Part shown: piece by piece, positions 2,918 to 20,271 of the stretch
Position numbering within the stretch: the stretch's first letter is position 1
Layout of the letters: every line of letters begins with the position of its first letter
Source: Haloferax volcanii DS2
GTDB lineage: Archaea; Halobacteriota; Halobacteria; Halobacteriales; Haloferacaceae
Length of the DNA stretch: 32,000 nucleotides
Reading direction: 5' to 3'
Assembly (NCBI RefSeq): GCF_000025685.1
Contig: NC_013966.1
Span: 360,001-392,000 of the forward strand
Made by a program: the position numbers and the translations under genes
The notes under the pieces: model-generated
What the model saw: only the letters and a program-made list of their open reading frames with translations
Database searches by the model: none
Told to the model about the DNA's origin: nothing

Positions 2918-3009
2918 AGTATAGTTCGGGTGGACTTGTCTGAATATTGGATAACTTGTCAACCGGCCATAAAGTATATGCACTTAGGATGACACATCAT
3001 GTTTGCTGT

Positions 3010-3651
3010 ATGACCAGAAATATTGACAGAAAAAGCATTGACCTTTCGAACATCAATCGTAGGAGGTTTGTCCAAGGTGTTAGTTCTACAGTAGGCGTAA
3101 GCGGATTAGGTGTCTCAGGACTTGGAAAGGCCTCTGCGGAGGGTGCACGTGAGTATATTGGGGTGTCATATGATACTAGAACTCACATCACCCAGCGGAA
3201 ATGTACTGCATCACTTAATTATAAACCAGATGGTAGACTGAGTGGGATACTGAAGATTGCAGGTTATAATATACCAGTGGGATCTGACGGAAGGATAAAA
3301 CCGAACTCGAGCTCTGATATGTGGTCTTACTGGATTGAAAAAGAAGAAGAGAAATTCCAGGAAGATGACCAAAAACTACAAATTAGGCTCAACTTCGATG
3401 GAGATAGAATGGTTGGGTGGATGACTCGTCCCACCCCAAAGTTTGCCAAACTCAGCTTCTCGATGAATGCTGTGGATAGAGGTGCAACTATGGACAAAAT
3501 AGAGAGCGCTCTTAATCCAAAGGATCTCTCAAAATTCGACAAAAACCCCACTATCCCTCAAAAAGGAATTCCAACAGAAACGTCAATTCAGAATATGAGA
3601 GTGAAGCCTGATAAGTCAGAAAACTATCTCAAAAAGAGAGGTGGTGAGTGA
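3010..3651 (+). CDS. Tat-signal secreted protein, unknown function (AT-rich cassette 1, gene A)
   Basis: Internal ATG at 3010 of ORF 2947..3651 gives MTRNIDRKSIDLSNINRRRFVQGVSSTVGVSGLGVSGLGKASA-EG. This is a twin-arginine motif (RRRFVQG), an h-region and an AxA cleavage site. The stop overlaps the next gene's start. Confidence 0.6.
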   Translation: MTRNIDRKSIDLSNINRRRFVQGVSSTVGVSGLGVSGLGKASAEGAREYIGVSYDTRTHITQRKCTASLNYKPDGRLSGILKIAGYNIPVGSDGRIKPNSSSDMWSYWIEKEEEKFQEDDQKLQIRLNFDGDRMVGWMTRPTPKFAKLSFSMNAVDRGATMDKIESALNPKDLSKFDKNPTIPQKGIPTETSIQNMRVKPDKSENYLKKRGGE

Positions 3652-4424
3652 TGGAAGATTCAGACGATGTTTCAGTTATTTCGGAGTTCCCAGATAGTGG
3701 TGAGATGTCGATTGATACTAGTACTAATGGGTGTACTACGGATATCGAGGAAACAACAAACTGGGAATACGCAGCAGCTATCTCAGCTGAAGGAGAGAAT
3801 GAGAATATCACGCTTGGGGAAAGTGAATACAAAAATATTTATATCCATGACATGTTCCCTGATCTTCCCACAGATCTCTTGGGTGGCTGTTCGTTTTCAA
3901 CTGGCAGCTACCCATCCGAACCCAGTCCTGATTCAGTAACTTACTCTCTAAATGTTGCTGATGATAAGATATCCCTGTCAGAACCAGTCCCGTGGCCTGA
4001 CGATGACGATAATGAAAATGATTACGACGACTTAGCGGCAATTTCGATAGCTATCGTTGGTGCATTCGTGGCTCCGTGGAAGTCTATTGCTCTATCTGGC
4101 ATCTCTCTTTTGCTTGACACTGATTTGCAAGATCCGATTACGTTTGATCGAGATACATCCAATGGCGAAACGTTCACTTGGGACTATCTATTGGATGCTA
4201 GTTCAGGATTAGATGGGTTTCCGGATACCCGAGAAGAAACTGGTGGTATCCGTGCAAGTGTGCGTAATGAGGGATTGGGATCTGGTGACTACACAGACAT
4301 CTCTGTTGACACGTCATTCACGTTTCGAGTCCCCTCTCTTGGTGGATACTGCCCATGTGAAGGCTATGTTTTAGTCAATGAGACTGCTGAGAGTTCGTTC
4401 CTGGAATTAGTCGAAGGCGAATAG
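3651..4424 (+). CDS. very acidic protein with a central ~28-aa hydrophobic segment, unknown function (cassette 1, gene B)
   Basis: ORF track 3648..4424; GTG 3648 or ATG 3651 overlaps the upstream TGA at 3649-3651. It has D/E-rich flanks (PWPDDDDNENDYDD) around LAAISIAIVGAFVAPWKSIALSGISLLL. No signal peptide. Confidence 0.55.
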   Translation: MEDSDDVSVISEFPDSGEMSIDTSTNGCTTDIEETTNWEYAAAISAEGENENITLGESEYKNIYIHDMFPDLPTDLLGGCSFSTGSYPSEPSPDSVTYSLNVADDKISLSEPVPWPDDDDNENDYDDLAAISIAIVGAFVAPWKSIALSGISLLLDTDLQDPITFDRDTSNGETFTWDYLLDASSGLDGFPDTREETGGIRASVRNEGLGSGDYTDISVDTSFTFRVPSLGGYCPCEGYVLVNETAESSFLELVEGE

Positions 4425-4474: not shown

Positions 4475-4622
4475 CTTGAATGTGAGAGAAAATCACTTGT
4501 CAAGACCGTTGAGAGGAAGCTAAGGAGCTGGTCCTCGTGAATTTGATCGTCTGCTTGCTGCTGTTGTTTGGACACATCTTCAGCAAGCAGACGTCTCAAC
4601 TAACCGACTTTGTAATGTACTA
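4475..4622 (-). mobile_element. diverged ISH3-family 5'-end remnant (terminal repeat plus first ~40 codons)
   Basis: GAGGAAGCTAAGGAGCTGGTCCTCGTGAATTTGATCGTCTGCTTGCTG...CAGCAAGCAGACGTCTCAACTAACCGACTTTGTAATGTACTA aligns with 2805-2917 of copy 1 with scattered mismatches. Similarity fades upstream of about 4475. Confidence 0.7.
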
Positions 4623-4629
4623 AATACGC

Positions 4630-4885
4630 GTGAAAATAAGACACGCAACAGAACCCAAACTCCGAAGTTGTGGACTCCACAACCTCGGAGGATGGGCGTG
4701 TTGCGTGCCTTCTATTCAAGCACAACAACGGAGAAATAGGTGCTGTCTATCGGTTTTGATTTCATATCACTCAGAAAACCTTTCCACGCTTTCTCACCGT
4801 GACGAACTCGGAAATCACGAGACGAGGGCCTAATCAAACACAAACCATGTGAAAATAAGACACGCAACAGAACCCAAACTCCGAA
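4630..4885. repeat. 37-bp perfect direct repeat pair (4630-4666 and 4849-4885); the first copy leads into a ~66-nt imperfect palindrome (4642-4707)
   Basis: GTGAAAATAAGACACGCAACAGAACCCAAACTCCGAA occurs twice. In copy 1, CACGCAACA (4642-4650) pairs with TGTTGCGTG (4699-4707), and CTCCGAAGTTGTGGA (4660-4674) pairs with TCCACAACCTCGGAG (4676-4690), with one mismatch. Confidence 0.8.
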
Positions 4886-4938
4886 ACTGTGCTGGCCGGA
4901 AGACCGGACTGTGTGGTGGACATCTCGGTATGAATCCT

Positions 4939-5228
4939 CAGTACATCACAAAGCCGGTTAGTTGAGACGTCTGCTTGCAGAAGGTGTGTCTAATACCAAG
5001 CAAGCAGACAGTGAAATCCACGAGGACCAGCTCCTTAACTTCCTCGTCAACCGACTTGACGAGGAAGTTTCTCTGAATCTCGCCAACAACGCTAAAATCG
5101 ATGCAGAGAACATCTACGAGGTCCTCGTCGGTGCATGCACCGACGGGACCTCCGTCTCCACGCTCTGCGAAAACAGTGAAGACGCGCCTCCCGCAAACAC
5201 GGTCCTCTACCATCTCCGAACGAAGTTT
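4939..5228 (+). mobile_element. ISH3-family 5' fragment (290 bp, same subtype as copy 1), truncated by insertion of the next element
   Basis: It starts with CAGTACATCACAAAGCCGG at 4939. The encoded N-terminus (ORF 4962..5255) is identical to copy 1 through ...VLYHLRTKF. The sequence then switches abruptly to a new terminal repeat at 5229. Confidence 0.9.
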
Positions 5229-5702
5229 CAGTACCTCACAAAGCCGTTTAGTTAGAAGGTCTGCTTGCTGAAGATGTGTCCAACAACCAGCAAACAGACG
5301 ATGAAATCCACGAGGACCAGCTCCTTAACTTCCTCGTCAACTCTCTTGACGAGGAAGTTGCTCTCTCACTCGCTGAAAACGCTGAACTCGATGCTGAAGA
5401 CATCTACGAGGTCCTCGTCGGCGCCTGCGCCGACGGGACCTCGGTCTCAACGCTCTGTGAGAGAAGCGAAAATGCACCCCACGAAAACTCCGTTCTCTAC
5501 CATCTCCGCACTAAATTCGATCTAGAAACGCTCGAACAGGTGGGCAACATGCTCCTCCAGAAAGACGTTCTCGACGTCCTTCCCCAGCAGGTGGAGGTCT
5601 GCGCAGACCTCCACCTGCGGCCCTACTATGGTGACGAAGACGACACGGACGGCCTGTATCACTCACAAGCGAAGCGTGGAACCACCGCGTTCCACGCGTA
5701 CG
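5229..5702 (+). mobile_element. ISH3-family 5' fragment (about 474 bp, subtype of copy 4), truncated by the IS4-family element
   Basis: It starts with CAGTACCTCACAAAGCCGTTTAGTTAGAAGG at 5229. ORF 5276..5719 matches the copy-4 transposase N-terminus through ...TTAFHAYA. Homology stops at CACGCGTACGC (about 5703, +/-1 nt). Confidence 0.9.
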
Positions 5703-7147
5703 CATCCGTTCTAGTTTAACGAAGAATCCAGTTGCTGTCTGTTGATTTGATATCGTCGCAACTACCTGATTGAGAAACCCGGTGGGAAGTATGACCTACA
5801 GCCCACCGGATTCGGTCATAGTTGACCGGATTCAAAGAGCGTTTCCCTCTGATGAGTTGCGCGAGCGCGCTCGCGCAACGAATCTCGTCCAACGAGAGCG
5901 GAAATTCGACATCGTTGCGCTGTTCTACACACTCTCGTTTGGCTTCGCTGCTGGCTCAGACCGCTCTCTCCAAGCATTTCTCGAACGCTACGTCGAGATG
6001 GCTGACTGTGACGAACTCTCCTACGCATCGTTCCACGACTGGTTCGAACCAGGATTCGTTGCACTCCTTCGAGAGATTCTCGATGACGCAATCGAGAATC
6101 TCGATACCGGACGAGAAGATTTGAACGGCCGTCTCGAACGCTTTCGAGACGTCCTCATTGCTGACGCAACCATCGTTTCGCTGTACCAGGACGCCGCTGA
6201 TATCTACACAGCAACCGGCGACCATCAAGCCGAACTGAAACTTCACCTCACCGAATCTCTCTCGACTGGGCTCCCGACACGATTCCGGACAACCGATGGG
6301 ACGACTCATGAACGGAGTCAGCTACCCACCGGTGAGTGGGTAGCTGACGCCCTCATCTTGCTCGATTTAGGCTTCTACGACTTCTGGTTGTTCGACCGAA
6401 TCGACCAGAACGGCGGGTGGTTCGTCTCCCGGGTGAAGGACAACGCGAACTTCGAGATCGTCGAAGAACTGCGAACGTGGCGAGGCAACAGCATTCCGCT
6501 GGAAGGAGAGTCGCTGCAGGCCGTCCTTGAGGACCTGCAGCGACAGGAAATCGACGTACGCATCACGCTTTCATTCGAGCGCAAACGAGGGTCGGGCGCC
6601 AGCGCGACCCGGTCGTTCCGATTGGTCGGCCTGCGTAACAAGGAGAGCGAAGAGTACCATCTGTATCTGACGAATCTGGCGAGAGAAAGCTACAGCGCGC
6701 CCGATATCGCGCAGCTCTATCGGGCGCGCTGGGAGGTCGAACTGCTGTTCAAGGAGTTGAAGTCGCGGTTCGGCTTGGACGAGATCAAGACGACCGACGG
6801 CTACATCATCGAGGCGCTGATCATCATGGCCGCAATTTCGTTGATGATGAGTCGTGTAATCGTGGATGAGTTACGGTCGCTCGAGGCAAGACAGCGAGAG
6901 GGCGAAGCCGCCGCAGACGCCGACTCGTCGGCGTCGCGGCTCCCTCGGCGTCGCTGTTCGCTCGCCGTGGAACGCCACGGTCATCTAATCCAGTTGTATC
7001 TCATGATCGAGTTGGGCTACGAACTGCCGGATTTGGACGAGCTGTTGCTGTGGGCGTCGCGTAATCCAAATCCACACAGGCAACGGTTACGTGAGCAGGT
7101 TGAACGAGGTGAGTTCGGCTTTGATCGCTACTAAACTAGAACGCATG
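5703..7147 (+). mobile_element. IS4-family insertion sequence (~1445 bp)
   Basis: Terminal inverted repeats are CATCCGTTCTAGTTTA (5703-5718) and TAAACTAGAACGCATG (7132-7147), matching 15/16. There is a single transposase ORF. No matching target duplication is seen in the flanks (CGCGTACG / GCTGGCCC). Confidence 0.85.
5791..7134 (+). CDS. IS4-family DDE transposase
   Basis: ORF track 5770..7134 (TTG); the first ATG is at 5791 (MTYSPPDS...). It contains YRARWEVELLFKELKS, an exact fit to the IS4-family Y-x2-R-x3-E-x6-K signature. Upstream are ADATIVSL and LLDLGFYD, DDE-like acidic positions. Confidence 0.88.
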   Translation: MTYSPPDSVIVDRIQRAFPSDELRERARATNLVQRERKFDIVALFYTLSFGFAAGSDRSLQAFLERYVEMADCDELSYASFHDWFEPGFVALLREILDDAIENLDTGREDLNGRLERFRDVLIADATIVSLYQDAADIYTATGDHQAELKLHLTESLSTGLPTRFRTTDGTTHERSQLPTGEWVADALILLDLGFYDFWLFDRIDQNGGWFVSRVKDNANFEIVEELRTWRGNSIPLEGESLQAVLEDLQRQEIDVRITLSFERKRGSGASATRSFRLVGLRNKESEEYHLYLTNLARESYSAPDIAQLYRARWEVELLFKELKSRFGLDEIKTTDGYIIEALIIMAAISLMMSRVIVDELRSLEARQREGEAAADADSSASRLPRRRCSLAVERHGHLIQLYLMIELGYELPDLDELLLWASRNPNPHRQRLREQVERGEFGFDRY

Positions 7148-14380: not shown

Positions 14381-14509
14381 CTGACCGAAACGTCGGATAC
14401 AGAACCCATAGGGGTTTTGGATATCCATCAGTGGGCGGGGTTACTCGAAGCCAGCTGCTATTTTTCGCGGGGCTTGAAGAACTGAGCCCCTCTGTAGGCT
14501 CGTGATTTG

Positions 14510-14917
14510 ATGGCCAAGCTACCAGACGACGACCCGTTTCACGACTGCAAGTTGGATCCCGAGGCGATCCTCGGGACACACACCTACGAAAACGTCCTGT
14601 TCACCGACGAGACGGAAACCCCGGTGAACGTGCTCACCGGCGAGACACCGGCACATTCGCAAGCAACCGTCGAGGAAGCGAAAGAGTTCGCTGCGAGTAT
14701 CGACACGGAGACGCCCCAGATCGCGCTCCCCGCATCCGTCGAGTCGCAGATCGAAACACAGAGCAAGCCCTACACGGCGGCCGCATTCTTCCACTTCAAG
14801 GCGACTGGCTCGCTCGAACGCCACCGCGCCTACCACGCCGCCTACGAGGCGGATGCGTTCGCGGTCGACTTCGAGGCTGACTACGCATCGGGCGACCTGA
14901 CTATTATTGTCGACTGA
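14510..14917 (+). CDS. acidic hypothetical protein
   Basis: ORF track 14507..14917 (TTG), with ATG at 14510. Halophile-like acidic composition; no family recognised. Confidence 0.5.
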   Translation: MAKLPDDDPFHDCKLDPEAILGTHTYENVLFTDETETPVNVLTGETPAHSQATVEEAKEFAASIDTETPQIALPASVESQIETQSKPYTAAAFFHFKATGSLERHRAYHAAYEADAFAVDFEADYASGDLTIIVD

Positions 14918-15336
14918 GTGGAAGTGGCCTGAAAGCGAGAATACAACCCTGTACCTCAACACGCGATACCGCTCGAAACCAACATTCGTCCTGACGGCCG
15001 CCTCCACCAATCCGAGCGGATAGCAACATGTTGACCGCAACTCCCATTCTATTACCAAGACGTGATGCCGCACTTGGTTTGTGGCGTGTCTGGGTGGGGA
15101 TGTTACAAGCGGAGTTCGTCGTTGGTAACAAGTAGCGATTGCGTCAATGATTTCGAGAACTTCACCAGAAGAAATATTGTTAGCCAACTAACTAATTCCA
15201 ATTGGATGTTTGACAGAATCTCCCGCCGAAGGTTCGTCCGCGTGAGTGGCGCTACCATTGGACTTGCCTCCTGTGTTGGACTCACATCTGCTCGTGGGTC
15301 TACTGAGAAACGACAAAATCACATTGAGGCAAAAAT

Positions 15337-16735
15337 CAGTACATCACAAAGCTGGTTAGTTGAGACGTCCGCTTGCTGAAGGTGTGTCTAATACCAAGCA
15401 AGCAGACGGTTCAATCCACGAGGACCAGCTCCTTAACTTCCTCGTCAACTCCCTTGACGAGGAAGTTGCACTCACTCTCGGTGAAAACGCTGAAATCGGT
15501 GCTGAAGACATCTACGAGGTCCTCGTCGGCGCCTGCGCCGACGGGACCTCGGTCTCTACACTCTGCAAGAGAAGCGAAGATGCACCTCACGAAAACTCGG
15601 TTCTCTACCATCTCCGCACCAAGTTCGACCTCGAGACGCTCGAACAAATCGGGAACACGCTCCTCCAGAAGGACGTTCTCGACGTCCTGCCTGAGCAGGT
15701 GGAGGTCTGCGCAGACCTCCACCTGCGGCCCTACTATGGTGACGAAGACGACACGGACGGTCTCTATCACTCCCAAGCAAAGCGTGGAACCACCGCGTTC
15801 CACGCGTACGCGACACTGTACGCACGCGTGAAGAACAAACGCTACACGCTGGCGGTGCGCCGTCTCGAAGACGGCGACACCGCCAGCAGTGTCCTCGCAG
15901 AGTTCCTCGGTATTCTCGACGGCCTTGACCTCGGTGTCAAGGCCGTCTATCTTGACCGCGAATTCTACGACAGCAAGTGTTTGACGCTGCTTCAGGCGCA
16001 CAACCACGCGTACGTCATGCCGATCGTCCGCTGGGGACGAACGATCAAGCGAGAACTCTCAGAAGGGTGGAGTCGCGTGATTCAGCACAGTCTGACAGCG
16101 AAACTCGACGGTCACAGCTGGACCGTCGAGTTTCCCGTCTACATCGACTGTACCTACCAGAACGGACGGTACGACGAACATGGCGTGGCGCGTCACGGCT
16201 ACGCCGCTGACGCGCCGTTCATCAACTCACCACGAGACGCTCGATACCACTACGCGAAACGCTTCGGTATCGAGGCGAGCTACCGACTCTCCGAGCAAAC
16301 GATTGCGACGACTACGACACAGAATCCGGTCGTACGGCTGTTGTACGTCGTGGTGAGTTTGCTGTTACAGAACGTGTGGCGGTATCTGCACTGGGAGTAC
16401 GTGGCGACGCCCCGCCGAGGCGGGCGTCGCCTCTGGGAGTGGTCGTACAAGGAATTCACCAACTTGATTCGACGGGCAGCGTGGACGGCCCTCGCGGTGC
16501 GTCGGGCCGTCCCCGCGAACCGGCCACCAGACGACCGGTTTAGCCGGTAACTCTTGACCGGGCTAGCCAGCGGTGTGAGTGGCGACGCTGTCGCGTCAGC
16601 GGCTGACCGCCGCCGACAGCGACAGCTCTCCACCGATTCGTCCATGATTCTCCCGTCGAGACCGTCAATGCAACCGCTCCGACACAGAACTCAGGCTTCA
16701 GAAACAGCTAGCCGAGGATGCTTTGTGAGGTACTG
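15337..16735 (+). mobile_element. ISH3-family insertion sequence, copy 3 (1399 bp), intact with target-site duplication
   Basis: Terminal repeats are CAGTACATCACAAAGC (15337-15352) and GCTTTGTGAGGTACTG (16720-16735). Direct AAAAT lies at 15332-15336 and 16736-16740. Confidence 0.9.
15384..16550 (+). CDS. ISH3-family DDE transposase
   Basis: ORF track 15360..16550; the likely GTG start is at 15384 (MSNTKQADGSIHEDQLLNFLVNSLDEEV...). It is collinear over its full length with the other two copies. Confidence 0.9.
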   Translation: MSNTKQADGSIHEDQLLNFLVNSLDEEVALTLGENAEIGAEDIYEVLVGACADGTSVSTLCKRSEDAPHENSVLYHLRTKFDLETLEQIGNTLLQKDVLDVLPEQVEVCADLHLRPYYGDEDDTDGLYHSQAKRGTTAFHAYATLYARVKNKRYTLAVRRLEDGDTASSVLAEFLGILDGLDLGVKAVYLDREFYDSKCLTLLQAHNHAYVMPIVRWGRTIKRELSEGWSRVIQHSLTAKLDGHSWTVEFPVYIDCTYQNGRYDEHGVARHGYAADAPFINSPRDARYHYAKRFGIEASYRLSEQTIATTTTQNPVVRLLYVVVSLLLQNVWRYLHWEYVATPRRGGRRLWEWSYKEFTNLIRRAAWTALAVRRAVPANRPPDDRFSR

Positions 16736-17659
16736 AAAATCGATACTACGATTGAAAATGGTGTGAAGTACGTCGTCTCACTCGCTCGTAACAAGAAGAC
16801 GGATGAGATTGATGGTGTAATCCTCCCGGTGTCCGTTGACGATCGTAAGGAGCAACCGCTGAAATTAGCATTTAACGACTCAGATTCGGATCTGTATGAG
16901 GTTTCAGATGATGTACTCGCACAAGTTCAGGAATCTGTTTTCGAAGCTAAGTCAGACACAATGGTGACTAAAGAGACAACTGAAAGACAAGACGTGGTCC
17001 AGACTGACATTTGGGGCCCTCTACGTGATATCGTACAGCGATCAGATCCCAGTCGCGGAGACATAGAAACGCAAGAAGAATCACTATTAGAAGATGTTGT
17101 AAAAGAAATCGCTGCCGGGACAAAAGATTCGATCAATCGAATTGGTGCGTACTACATTAAAAGTCCAGAAGGTACTGAGTGCGATGCCTCAGCAAACAGT
17201 AACCCGCACCGTCAATTGGGTGTCTCAATTGATTACGAAAAGAAATTAGGCGAGTTCACCGAGACAGCTGTTACTGGTGTATTGGGTGCTGTGCTTGGAG
17301 CCTTTCTTGCTGGTTTAGCTGGTGCTGCTCTTGGTGGCTTACTTGGCGCTATAGTTGGCTTTGGCATTAAGTATCTCAAAGACACAACTAACGTGACATT
17401 CGTCTATCGTGATATCGATAAATGTGCTCTCAGCGCCTGCTCGCCGTTCATGAAGCCACTCGTGAGTGGTATTTGGATGGACGAAGACACCGACCTACTT
17501 GAGGTTGATATCGGCCAAGCGGATCTTCCTGCAGTCCATCTTGAAAATGGTGCGCAGGTTGATGTGGGCTTTAGAGATGAGTTGAAGATCTCATCTTAAT
17601 CGAGTCACGGAAACATACGAACAGCCAAACCTACTATCACAATATTGGTGACAGACCTG

Positions 17660-17890
17660 ATGAAAGAGTTCTTAATGAAGATTAGAGATGAGGCAGACCA
17701 AGAGCTACAGCATCCCTTGCCAGGAATTATTCTCGTCGGCCTCGCCGCTGGATTAGGTGTGCTCCTCATGGGCAACCTAGTCAAATCAGTTCTGGGTGGT
17801 TCAAGTATTATCGCTGATTTTGCAGCGATTTTTGGAGCAGGTTTCTATGCTGCTGTTGCGTACTATGCTCTCGCAAAGATCGGGCTTTAA
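17660..17890 (+). CDS. small two-TM membrane protein (76 aa)
   Basis: ATG at 17660 within ORF 17645..17890 gives MKEFLMKIRDEADQELQHPLPGIILVGLAAGLGVLLMGNLV...FAAIFGAGFYAAVAYYALAKIGL. It lies 60 nt downstream of the glycine-zipper gene on the same strand. Confidence 0.5.
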   Translation: MKEFLMKIRDEADQELQHPLPGIILVGLAAGLGVLLMGNLVKSVLGGSSIIADFAAIFGAGFYAAVAYYALAKIGL

Positions 17891-17937
17891 CCGTTCAGGT
17901 AAGCCTTTTCTGAGGTGTAATGTTTCCTTGAGAGAAT

Positions 17938-18078
17938 TTTAACCAACAAAACTTGGTCTTTTCAGGTCACAACGGGACACCAACGATAGACTCCTCTACC
18001 AACGAACACGGCCGAGCCAGCCGAAGCACTCACTGTCGCATTCCAGCTGAAAAGACCAAACTAATTCTGTTGGTTAAG
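17938..18078. repeat. MITE-like unit: long imperfect terminal inverted repeats around a ~80-bp core
   Basis: Left arm is TTTAACCAACAAAACTTGGTCTTTTCAG (about 17938-17965). Right arm is CTGAAAAGACCAAACTAATTCTGTTGGTTAAG (18047-18078). Two perfect blocks, TTAACCAACA (10 bp) and TTGGTCTTTTCAG (13 bp), are separated by a 4-versus-8-nt bubble. Confidence 0.5.
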
Positions 18079-18106
18079 ATAGTCGTATCACTCCCGAAGT
18101 GAGGAT

Positions 18107-19504
18107 CAGTACCTCACAAAGCATCCTCGCCTAGCTGTCTCTGAAGCCTGAATTCTGTGGCCGAGCGGTTGCATTGGCGGTCTCGACGACAGAATCATGG
18201 ACGGATCGGCGGAGAGCCGTCGCTGTCGGCGGCGGCTGCCGCCGACGCGACAGCGTCGCCACTCCCACCGTTGGCTAGCCCGGTCGGGAGTTACCGGTGG
18301 AACCGGTCGTCCGGTGGCCGGTTCGCGGGGACGGCCCGACGCGTCGCGAGGGCCGTCCACGCTGCCCGTCGGATCATGTTGATGAACTCCTTGAATGGCC
18401 ACTGCCAGAGGCGACGCCCGCCTCGGCGGGGCGTCGCCACGTACTCCCAGTGCAGATACCGCCACACGTTCTGTAACAGCAAGCTCACCACGACGTACAG
18501 CAGCCGTACAACCGGATTTTGTGTCGAGGTCGTCGCGATACTTTGTTCAGAGAGTCGATAGCTTGCCTCGATACCGAAGCGTTTCGCGTAGTGGTATCGA
18601 GCGTCTCGTGGTGAGTCGATGAACGGCGCGTCAGCGGCGTAGCCGTGACGCGCCACCCCATGTTCGTCGTACCGTCCGTTCTGGTAGGTACAGTCGATGT
18701 AGACGGGGAACTCGACGGTCCAGCTGTGACCGTCGAGTCTCGCCGTCAGACTGTGCTGAATCACGCGACTCCACCCTTCTGAGAGTTCTTGCTTGATTGA
18801 TTGTCCCCAGCGGACGATCGGCATGACGTACGCGTGGTTGTGCGCCTGAAGCAGCGTCAAACACTTGCTGTCGTAGAATTCGCGGTCAAGATAGACGGCC
18901 TTGACACCGAGGTCAAGGCCGTCGAGAATACTGAGGAACTCTGCGAGGACACTGCTGGCGGTGTCGCCGTCTTCGAGACGGCGCACCGCCAGCGTGTAGC
19001 GTTTGTTCTTCACGCGTGCGTACAGCGTCGCGTACGCGTGGAACGCGGTGGTTCCACGCTTCGCTTGTGAGTGATACAGGCCGTCCGTGTCGTCTTCGTC
19101 ACCATAGTAGGGCCGCAGGTGGAGGTCTGCGCAGACCTCCACCTGCTGGGGAAGGACGTCGAGAACGTCTTTCTGGAGGAGCATGTTGCCAACCTGTTCG
19201 AGCGTTTCTAGATCGAATTTAGTGCGGAGATGGTAGAGAACGGAGTTTTCGTGGGGTGCATCTTCGCTTCTCTCACAGAGCGTTGAGACCGAGGTCCCGT
19301 CGGCGCAGGCGCCGACGAGGACCTCGTAGATGTCTTCAGCATCGAGTTCAGCGTTTTCAGCGAGTGAGAGAGCAACTTCCTCGTCAAGAGAGTTGACGAG
19401 GAAGTTAAGGAGCTGGTCCTCGTGGATTTCATCGTCTGCTTGCTGGGTTTTAGACACACCTTCTGCAAGCAGACCTTCTAACTAAACGGCTTTGTGAAGT
19501 ACTG
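18107..19504 (-). mobile_element. ISH3-family insertion sequence, copy 4 (1398 bp), intact with target-site duplication
   Basis: Terminal repeats are CAGTACCTCACAAAGC (18107-18122) and GCTTTGTGAAGTACTG (19489-19504). Direct AGGAT lies at 18102-18106 and 19505-19509. Confidence 0.9.
18291..19457 (-). CDS. ISH3-family DDE transposase
   Basis: ORF track, 388 aa, MSKTQQADDEIHEDQLLNFLVNSLDEEV.... The C-terminal ~160 aa are identical to copy 1. Confidence 0.9.
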   Translation of the reverse strand: MSKTQQADDEIHEDQLLNFLVNSLDEEVALSLAENAELDAEDIYEVLVGACADGTSVSTLCERSEDAPHENSVLYHLRTKFDLETLEQVGNMLLQKDVLDVLPQQVEVCADLHLRPYYGDEDDTDGLYHSQAKRGTTAFHAYATLYARVKNKRYTLAVRRLEDGDTASSVLAEFLSILDGLDLGVKAVYLDREFYDSKCLTLLQAHNHAYVMPIVRWGQSIKQELSEGWSRVIQHSLTARLDGHSWTVEFPVYIDCTYQNGRYDEHGVARHGYAADAPFIDSPRDARYHYAKRFGIEASYRLSEQSIATTSTQNPVVRLLYVVVSLLLQNVWRYLHWEYVATPRRGGRRLWQWPFKEFINMIRRAAWTALATRRAVPANRPPDDRFHR

Positions 19505-19568
19505 AGGATACTTCATTGCTCAAAAACCAGCCGCTAATTTGAGATACTGATGCTTCTTGTTCTGAAGT

Positions 19569-19850
19569 TCAATCGTCGGCAGTATACGCACCGCTTCGGT
19601 GCTCGATTCGATGGACCTCGAGGATTGACTCGTCGTAGTCCAAGACACAAGCCAGACGATACTGTCCGATACGGAGTTTCGAGAATGGCCCACCAGTTAA
19701 CGGCTCAACAAAGTCGTCAGGATCTCGCCACTCTGAGTCGACAATCTCGTCGAGCTTTGAGACGATCCGGTCTTGAACGTGCGTATCGAGCCCTTTGAAT
19801 TGGTTCGCAGCGCGTGGTGAGAACTTCCACGTCCAGTCTTCCTCACTCAC
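19569..19850 (-). CDS. relE: type II toxin, RelE/ParE family
   Basis: 93 aa. W-x-W-K-F-S-P-R-A...LD...RI...L..., GGPFSKLRIGQYRLACVLDYDESILEVHRIEHRSGAY is the typical RelE/ParE pattern. It overlaps the upstream antitoxin gene by 8 nt. Confidence 0.85.
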   Translation of the reverse strand: MSEEDWTWKFSPRAANQFKGLDTHVQDRIVSKLDEIVDSEWRDPDDFVEPLTGGPFSKLRIGQYRLACVLDYDESILEVHRIEHRSGAYTADD

Positions 19851-20139
19851 TATCCGTGTCTCGATCCATCATTTCGAGGACTTCGTCTCGCGAGACTAAA
19901 TCTGATTCACCGGACCGGAGGTCGTGTTCGCTCGCTGCGATTTGCTTCCATCCTTCTCGCGAAAATTCGGGATGTTTGATGGCGTCACGAGCAGCGTAGC
20001 GAAGGAATTCGCTCCGTGAGTTGAACCCCTGTTCTTCCCACGTTGCGTCGATGTCTTCGAGGAAGGCTTTGCTTAGCCGGAGGTTTATCTGCACCATCTC
20101 TGGGCCGTTATTGCTGGACCCTGTATCAGCATCGGACAT
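19843..20139 (-). CDS. ribbon-helix-helix (CopG-like) antitoxin
   Basis: VQINLRLSKAFLEDIDATWEEQGFNSRSEFLRYAARDAI is a beta-strand plus two helices, as in an RHH domain. It sits immediately upstream of, and overlaps, the RelE-like gene. Confidence 0.8.
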   Translation of the reverse strand: MSDADTGSSNNGPEMVQINLRLSKAFLEDIDATWEEQGFNSRSEFLRYAARDAIKHPEFSREGWKQIAASEHDLRSGESDLVSRDEVLEMMDRDTDSE

Positions 20140-20271
20140 ATACGTGTGCTATGCGTCCGTGTAGACATAAGCCTTCTCCGAAGAACTACCTGATTGCCTT
20201 GATCGAATTCTCGGTGTCGTCGAAAGATTGGTCTGTACGTATCCACATCATGATAGCGTAATCGTCTACCC

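Follow-up and report, generated by a model that had tools for sequence, protein, structure and literature searches.

Haloarchaeal antagonism is widespread, and among the halocins precursor sequences are known for only three, H4, C8, and S8. HalH4 requires its transmembrane (TM) region in order to kill, and a halH4 knock-out of Haloferax mediterranei reportedly still inhibits other strains. In the bacterial systems Tse4, CdzC/CdzD, TelE, and LXG-T2/Imm2, an uncharged segment of GxxxG repeats is needed for membrane damage; immunity is provided by proteins anchored in the membrane, which are multipass in the case of CdzC/D and Tse4, and LXG clusters carry the gene for such a protein directly downstream (PMC12955049). 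Here, we analyzed a stretch of 32,000 nucleotides (nt) of Haloferax volcanii DS2 (NC_013966.1, positions 360,001 to 392,000; hereafter, the window), in which a gene for a putatively exported protein with a glycine zipper is split by an ISH3-family insertion sequence (IS) and is followed by a small open reading frame (ORF) for a two-TM protein. An original prediction, made from the sequence alone, had described the two as a candidate toxin/immunity cassette. Comparison with their relatives indicates that they belong to a mobile haloarchaeal module, for which toxin plus immunity is tentatively the best single reading.

The split gene and its module

The original prediction placed an ISH3 copy between 15337 and 16735, with AAAAT as the target duplication and an ORF interrupted by it, and every part of this description was confirmed. 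The two ends of the element form imperfect terminal inverted repeats (CAGTAC[A/C]TCACAAAGC), and its 396-amino-acid (aa) ORF encodes an ISH3 family transposase (NF033541, 384.6 bits; cut-off, 225); other ISH3-family copies within the window are 91–93% identical to it. When 15337–16740 is removed, 15206–15336 joins 16741–17599 in a 990-nt frame of 329 aa plus stop, and the restored junction reads ...HIEAKI/DTTIENG..., exactly as had been proposed.

The original prediction had also suggested looking for the empty site in related strains, and it exists in Haloferax alexandrinus pBNX82-3, which reads ...gaggcaaaaatcgatactac... with one AAAAT only and the IS absent. This plasmid is 99.8% identical to the window over 16741–18105 and colinear with it on both sides. 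The gene is uninterrupted also in H. lucentense pSVX82-1 (93%) and in H. chudinovii (94% protein identity). Because both an empty site and a target duplication are present, the large gene in the window is an IS-inactivated pseudogene, as the original prediction had it; the small gene is intact. The element sits after codon 43 and parts the promoter and the signal for the twin-arginine translocation (Tat) pathway from the remainder of the large gene, and for H. volcanii, the 3' fragment is recorded as a truncated product of 278 aa. We infer a TATA-like box in the motif AAATATT, 28–34 nt upstream of the large-gene ATG; Rfam and promoter/terminator scans of 14400–19600 gave nothing meaningful.

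The 76-aa two-TM protein lies 60 nt downstream of the large gene, where the original prediction had put it, with a polar N-terminus of ~20 aa, two TM segments, and a C-terminal Y..L.K.G-L. A partner of 74–80 aa, on the same strand and 34–108 nt downstream, was present wherever the sequence downstream of a close-family locus could be read (the window and loci L001–L003, L005–L011, L013–L018, L025, and L027–L031); it was left unannotated in Halorussus and in one Halorubrum assembly. The cassette proposal had depended on conservation of the small ORF beside the homologs of the large one, and the ORF is conserved at all of these loci. It diverges faster than its neighbor, with a mean identity of 26–30% vs 54% for the large-protein core. 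Between Haloferax alleles, the ratio of nonsynonymous to synonymous substitution rates (dN/dS) was 0.13–0.19, the same for both genes, by which both ORFs are judged to be real genes under purifying selection. Synonymous divergence (dS) was discordant between the two: between the window and H. lucentense, the large gene gave 0.077 and the small gene 0.32, and between H. lucentense and H. chudinovii (L002, L013), they gave 0.087 and 0, respectively. This mismatch points to recombination between the large and the small gene.

In an IS-ridden region, and with neither ORF named by any family database, the two could be taken for ORFs that arose by chance in AT-rich junk DNA flanked by IS copies. We exclude this explanation: full-length homologs at 40–98% identity occur in many genera, the low dN/dS applies to both ORFs, the position of the partner is conserved, and the core of the structural model described below is confident.

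The pair occurs together at ~20 loci in Haloferax, Halorussus, Halorubrum, Natrinema, Halobiforma, DL31, and metagenomes. The spread is patchy: besides the unclassified isolate DL31, it takes in at least five named genera of haloarchaea, and all named hosts are Halobacteria. Flanking genes differ from genome to genome and include tRNA synthetases, a PAS sensor, GAPDH, ABC transporters, plasmid toxin–antitoxin genes, and IS genes; many copies are lone chromosomal islets without plasmid or provirus context. Wherever composition was measured (15 of 15 loci), the pair was AT-rich relative to its flanks (42–56% vs 50–68% G+C). In the window, G+C is 46–47% for the cassette, 50% for the 5' fragment, 59% for the IS, and 56–62% for neighboring genes, around a window mean of 57%; the original prediction was thus right in the direction of the difference but not in its figures, which were about 40% for the cassette and 60–75% for the neighbors. 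A constant pair, unrelated flanks, and AT-richness are together the signature of a horizontally moving module, and on these sequence features the pair is a rare, self-contained, horizontally moving, AT-rich module of haloarchaea. The horizontal acquisition that had been proposed agrees with this picture of a mobile cassette.

A second ISH3-type knock-out was found in Halorubrum lacusprofundi pR1SE2 (L004 3989–5949), where ISHla1, an ISH3-like element, lies at locus position 4735. The 3' end of the large gene and the partner ORF are missing at the IS site, and an identical region is intact on the DL31 plasmid. Judged by these two independent events, in the window and in pR1SE2, the module is dispensable.

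The large protein and its relatives

The large protein is a predicted Tat substrate, as supported by an S/T-R-R-x-F-L-type motif followed by a hydrophobic region; after start-codon correction, the twin arginines (RR) are present in every relative. PF10518 matches three family members, and TIGR01409 falls just under its cut-off for the relative P0002 (14.7 vs 16.7 bits). The RefSeq start of the Haloferax orthologs is a GTG 36 nt downstream, which gives 317 aa, vs 329 aa from the ATG. In this family, database starts frequently lie too far downstream, which removes the RR and thereby hides the Tat signal from annotation. Such starts were seen at L001 5870–6859, L002 5870–6859, L007, L008, and L025, and the entries P0003, P0005, and P0036 are short.

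The original prediction had combined the twin-arginine signal with a lipobox, and only the signal stands. The lipobox pattern L-A-S-C is present in the window and pBNX82-3, and the position of Cys23 reads LAPC in H. lucentense, LASS in H. chudinovii, and Leu, Val, or Ile in all other relatives. We rejected a Tat lipoprotein since the lipobox Cys is not conserved even among orthologs that are 94–98% identical; a signal-peptidase-type site, TSA/ASA, is conserved in place of the lipobox.

The rest of the restored protein follows the layout that had been proposed. The acidic domain of ~190 aa is real (pI, 4.56), although its acidity is ordinary for haloarchaeal proteins. The 34-aa glycine zipper (residues 220–253) is uninterrupted, and the C-terminal domain contains cysteines, namely Cys272 and Cys277; a further cysteine is Cys191. 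The zipper region holds 10 Gly, 8 Ala, and 7 Leu in 36 residues and is uncharged between Glu218 and Lys254. We aligned 33 sequences of the superfamily, which share 20–55% identity. Mean identity was 34% in the N-terminal third, 62% before the zipper, 43% within it, and 55% after it, and His200, Asp268, Gly287, and His310 were each at least 90% conserved. Cys272 and Cys277 are present in most members and, where replaced, are replaced together by Ser/Thr or aromatic pairs; such joint loss fits a dispensable extracellular disulfide.

AlphaFold2 (AF2) gave a mean predicted local distance difference test score (pLDDT) of 51 with 11 sequences and 76 with distant relatives added. In the latter model, block means reach 80–95 over residues 41–70 and much of 171–329. 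Strands are modeled at 40–49, 52–61, 67–75, 175–184, 201–209, 261–273, 276–286, and 321–326, and the zipper becomes two helices, 218–232 and 235–255, which form a helix-turn-helix between strands 201–209 and 261–273. According to this model, the hairpin is an insertion inside a beta-rich domain and, being inserted between two strands, would have both of its ends on the same side of any membrane.

The conserved residues of this domain raise the possibility, which we consider improbable, of an exported enzyme or metalloprotein. Cys191, His200, Asp268, and His310 would then form a catalytic (Cys-His-Asp) or metal center at the hairpin-distal end of the beta-sheet, with the hairpin as a tether or targeting device. 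The function would be a hydrolase or transferase activity on surface proteins or lipids and not a pore, which is compatible with a toxin or with a housekeeping-like role. Conservation is in keeping with such a center: Cys191 is the only invariant column of the alignment, and its three companions far exceed the zipper. The register of strands 201–209 and 261–273 in the model would also put His200 next to Asp268. However, searches with Pfam, NCBIfam, PDB sequences, and Foldseek brought up no enzyme family, and a C-x8-H spacing is commoner in structural metal sites than in catalytic triads.

We then consider how far the family reaches. Among 5.8 billion clustered proteins, a word-indexed search returned 12 clusters at 40–98% identity, of which those with names came from Haloferax, Halorussus, Halorubrum, and Halobiforma; in its extension, the small ORF matched close relatives only and the broad alignment added one member. 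A profile search of 1.84 billion representatives gave 40 proteins at E ≤1e-3, including 11 at E ≤1e-30. Scanning one genome per species (185,579 genomes) yielded 6 loci, and a metagenome scan (241 million records) yielded 5; among 2.9 million viral contigs, no relatives were found. None of the homologs belongs to a housekeeping family, a membership that would have counted against the original prediction.

No Pfam or NCBIfam model reached its threshold on the window protein, and all matches fell in the zipper. For Pfam Gly-zipper_YMGG, the window protein scored 14.9 bits, below the cut-off of 28.9. Of the Pfam glycine-zipper families considered (PF13441, PF13488, and PF05433), either of the first two matched 10 of the 33 relatives at E ≤0.01 (best, 6.8e-08), with models that span only the ~45-aa motif. 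When the family profile was compared with the PDB, SlyB was the only sequence touched (E 0.23 over 42 positions), and SlyB was absent from the top 50 Foldseek PDB matches. The large protein had no fold match in Pfam, the PDB, or viral predicted structures. By these tests, and whatever its function, the conserved domain around the zipper appears to be undescribed.

One distant relative is encoded by H. volcanii itself. HVO_A0133 (D4GQG3, WP_013035207.1, ADE02190.1; P0070 in our set) is encoded on pHV4 and annotated as a 'glycine zipper family protein', and its cluster, with P0040 as representative, matched the family profile at E 1.7e-30. The same cluster holds a fragment from Halorubrum sp. 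Atlit-28R, and the next cluster is a Halomicrobium katesii protein. We take the cluster to be that of HVO_A0133 because the name and these two relatives fit the published description, in which the protein is pHV4-encoded, has a Tat signal, and has close homologs only in the two organisms just named.

Published work on HVO_A0133 shows that it is made and released. When culture supernatant was concentrated, the protein was found unexpectedly in each of the four major bands, with a coverage of up to 83%; it was more than 8-fold up in conditioned-medium-grown cells, and its gene was up in late-log phase in a quorum-sensing study. It is also abundant in the proteomes of rod-shaped and conditioned-medium-grown cells, and two recent studies flagged it as unexplained.

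HVO_A0133 resembles the restored protein in its Tat signal, variable N-domain, Cys...His motif, zipper, LKDS, D..C....C, and SG.W, and it keeps the set of Cys, His, Asp, and His. Like the window module, its gene is AT-rich (47% G+C) and apparently lies on the same plasmid. Unlike the restored protein, to which it is ~25% identical, HVO_A0133 has 292 aa and a longer zipper, and is intact and expressed. On the profile match and the shared motifs, we place the two in one unnamed superfamily. Two other members of the distant HVO_A0133 subfamily have an 82–84-aa two-TM ORF nearby on the opposite strand. At the HVO_A0133 locus (L022 5001–5879), a gene for an IS-type transposase lies directly upstream.

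Function of the pair

Toxin plus immunity remains the single reading that suits the pair best, although we put it short of an even chance. In this mechanism, the large protein would fold in the cytoplasm as a beta-rich domain bearing the uncharged Gly/Ala/Leu hairpin, leave the cell in folded form via the Tat pathway, be cleaved after the TSA/ASA motif, and then be released like its paralogue HVO_A0133. At the membrane, the glycine-zipper hairpin would insert and oligomerize and so dissipate the ion gradients of competing haloarchaea, whereas the co-transcribed two-TM protein in the producer membrane would block this action and thus confer immunity. In the window copy, the toxin gene would have been knocked out and the putative immunity gene kept.

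We count several observations for this reading: the behavior of the module, its rarity and AT-richness, the low dN/dS of both ORFs, the universal RR, the modeled zipper hairpin, the joint loss of Cys272 and Cys277, the fast-evolving partner, and the dispensability of the pair, together with the release of HVO_A0133 into the supernatant, the downstream membrane immunity genes of zipper toxins, and the need of HalH4 for its TM region. The original prediction, in which a candidate secreted toxin was joined by a putative small immunity protein, is partly supported: it keeps its mobility, Tat signal, IS inactivation, and conserved partner, and loses the lipoprotein.

Other observations weigh against it. 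The near-invariant set of Cys191, His200, Asp268, and His310 would be unexpected of a plain pore-former and hints at a metal or catalytic site. The zipper gave only sub-threshold matches, each of them to a self-membrane anchor (SlyB, YiaD, PdsO, CmpA, and TraT). No two-TM ORF lies within 1.5 kb of HVO_A0133, which H. volcanii makes abundantly; a partner is thus not universally needed. The divergence of the partner tracks overall divergence, with no hairpin-specific co-variation between the two proteins (partial r 0.06), and the N-terminal third of the AF2 model is of low confidence. Halocins H4 and C8 offer no kinship either. HalH4 aligned to the family profile with an hhalign probability of 0.8% (E 0.069 over 20 columns), and the halocin C8 domain (TIGR04449) was unmatched in an NCBIfam scan at E ≤1 of the restored protein and three relatives. 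We therefore rejected kinship with these two halocins, the halH4 sequence compared being that of pHM300; a tblastn search against plasmids did not recover pHM300.

The anchor-like matches lead to a serious alternative, although one that we regard as less likely, namely that the large protein belongs to the envelope of its own producer. It would be anchored on the producer cell by the hairpin with both flanks outside and would form a complex with the two-TM partner for envelope organization, stress response, or adhesion, much as bacterial glycine-zipper anchors of the SlyB/Pcp type do, as an accessory trait of plasmids and islets. The best matches of the zipper, all sub-threshold, agree with this, being the anchors SlyB (E 0.23), PdsO, YiaD, and CmpA; weak matches to Gly-zipper_YMGG/Omp and 'Glycine zipper 2TM' add to them, and the hairpin is uncharged, with a grand average of hydropathy (GRAVY) of 1.76. 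HVO_A0133 is abundant in cell proteomes, and H. volcanii tolerates it without the partner. However, HVO_A0133 was also recovered from concentrated culture supernatant, the lipobox is unconserved, and the top PDB matches contain no SlyB fold. Moreover, conflict or selfish modules are what the pair recalls in its behavior, as a 1.3-kb unit that hops alone into unrelated sites on chromosomes and plasmids of several genera, is AT-rich and very rare, and has repeatedly been hit by IS elements.

A further alternative, which we consider very improbable, is an exclusion or defense module, in which the surface protein and the small membrane protein would bar viruses, plasmid vesicles, or mating partners in the manner of TraT/TraS or of prophage superinfection-exclusion lipoproteins. 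The plasmid- or island-like context beside toxin–antitoxin pairs and IS elements would suit such a role, as would the patchy distribution and the weak TraT matches via the zipper in two relatives. Conversely, PADLOC defense models gave no match, PHROG gave only low-complexity zipper matches (E 0.007 or worse), the family is absent from the viral contigs, and many copies are lone chromosomal islets.

Carried further, the toxin/immunity reading would make the pair a new protein-halocin family: a Tat-exported beta-rich protein with a hidden zipper hairpin and a Cys/His/Asp/His center, which kills by membrane insertion, is paired with a two-TM immunity protein, and travels as a 1.3-kb mobile module. 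We consider this possible but doubtful. If it is true, HVO_A0133 would be H. volcanii's own, so far unrecognized antagonistic protein, and the 76-aa ORF, intact in the window, would be an orphan immunity gene that was retained. The family is a concrete candidate that is genetically testable in the best archaeal model organism, and it gives context to HVO_A0133, a very abundant secreted protein of H. volcanii. Because the window copy is dead, its own value lies in pointing to the family and in offering a natural case in which the large gene was lost and the small gene kept.

Neighborhood and comparison with known systems

The features of the cassette and of its nearest surroundings are collected in Table 1.

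Table 1. Positions in the window of the split module, its main motifs, and the adjoining insertion sequences.
Feature	Position	Strand	Remarks
Large gene, 5' fragment	15206–15336	+	codons 1–43 plus 2 nt
Predicted twin-arginine signal, MFDRISRRRFVRVSGATIGLASCVGLTSA	15206–15292	+	RR motif kept in all relatives
Target-site duplication AAAAT, left copy	15332–15336	.	
ISH3-family insertion sequence	15337–16735	+	1399 bp; transposase ORF 15360–16550
Target-site duplication AAAAT, right copy	16736–16740	.	
Large gene, 3' fragment	16741–17599	+	residues 44–329 plus stop; variable N-domain, conserved beta-rich core, zipper, C-terminal segment
Cys191 codon	17180–17182	+	only superfamily-invariant residue, alignment of 33 sequences
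Glycine zipper, 34 aa, residues 220–253	17267–17368	+	AVTGVLGAVLGAFLAGLAGAALGGLLGAIVGFGI; modeled as helical hairpin
Partner ORF, 76 aa	17660–17890	+	two hydrophobic segments; start 60 nt past large-gene stop
Second ISH3-family copy, inverted	18107–19504	-	duplication AGGAT 18102–18106 / 19505–19509

The second ISH3-family copy starts 216 nt past the small ORF and, compared with pBNX82-3, is an independent simple insertion. The two inverted copies bracket the 3' part of the cassette, and the second is no part of it. Just downstream of the 76-aa ORF lies an inverted repeat that resembles a miniature inverted-repeat transposable element, with arms at 17936–17965 and 18047–18080, ~80 nt apart, and no Rfam match; it is probably an insertion because the H. 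lucentense match ends in its first arm (17951).

Directly upstream of the large gene, a 136-aa ORF (14507–14917) is kept in two Haloferax plasmids and is not found beside other members of the family; it had no match in Pfam-type, defense, or phage libraries. Beyond the second IS, 19570–20140 (colinear with L001 7426–7996) holds genes for a RelE/ParE toxin and a ribbon-helix-helix antitoxin, which fits a plasmid or island character of the neighborhood.

Farther away, a second AT-rich (42–45% G+C) two-ORF cassette at 2947–4424 lies between ISH3 copies and fragments. It consists of a 234-aa ORF with a twin-arginine signal (NINRRRFVQGV...) that overlaps a 258-aa acidic ORF with one central hydrophobic stretch, and neither had an NCBIfam match. 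We rejected ORF 2947–3651 as a paralogue of the large gene, as its weak match to the family profile reflects Tat-signal similarity only. Nested and partial ISH3-family fragments occupy 4513–5703, where 4934–5228 is a 295-nt perfect inverted duplicate of 2628–2922; these fragments indicate repeated IS-into-IS insertion or rearrangement.

Set against known systems, the module is closest in outline to the secreted toxins with which we began. It shares with the bacterial zipper toxins a zipper protein followed by a conserved two-TM ORF, here 34–108 nt downstream. It differs from them in having no sequence homology, a Tat signal instead of a type VI, VII, or I secretion system (T6SS, T7SS, or T1SS), a zipper internal to a beta-rich domain instead of C-terminal, and an archaeal host. 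HalH4, encoded on pHM300 of Haloferax mediterranei, is likewise plasmid-borne and Tat-exported, with ~330–360 aa and an internal hydrophobic segment; unlike the large protein, it carries no glycine zipper in that segment, and the two are not homologous. On the opposite strand, halH4 is adjoined by a 135-aa gene.

The SlyB/Pcp outer-membrane lipoproteins (PDB 7OJF) also combine an N-terminal export signal with an alpha-helical TM hairpin built on a glycine zipper. However, the match at E 0.23 is not significant, the lipobox is unconserved here, and Foldseek gave no match; in addition, the hairpin here is modeled inside the domain and not N-terminal to it, and the mobile accessory unit contrasts with a core envelope gene. 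The pore-forming colicins provide a parallel of another kind, in which a water-soluble protein conceals a hydrophobic helical hairpin until the hairpin goes into the membrane of the target. Their genes are plasmid-borne, and next to that of the toxin lies one for a small immunity protein integral to the membrane. Unlike the module, the colicins have an all-helical, unrelated fold and immunity proteins with three to four TM segments. As homology to both was tested and not found, the module is a member of neither the zipper toxins nor the HalH4-type halocins; if the toxin reading holds, it would nevertheless work most like a zipper toxin/immunity pair or a HalH4-type halocin.

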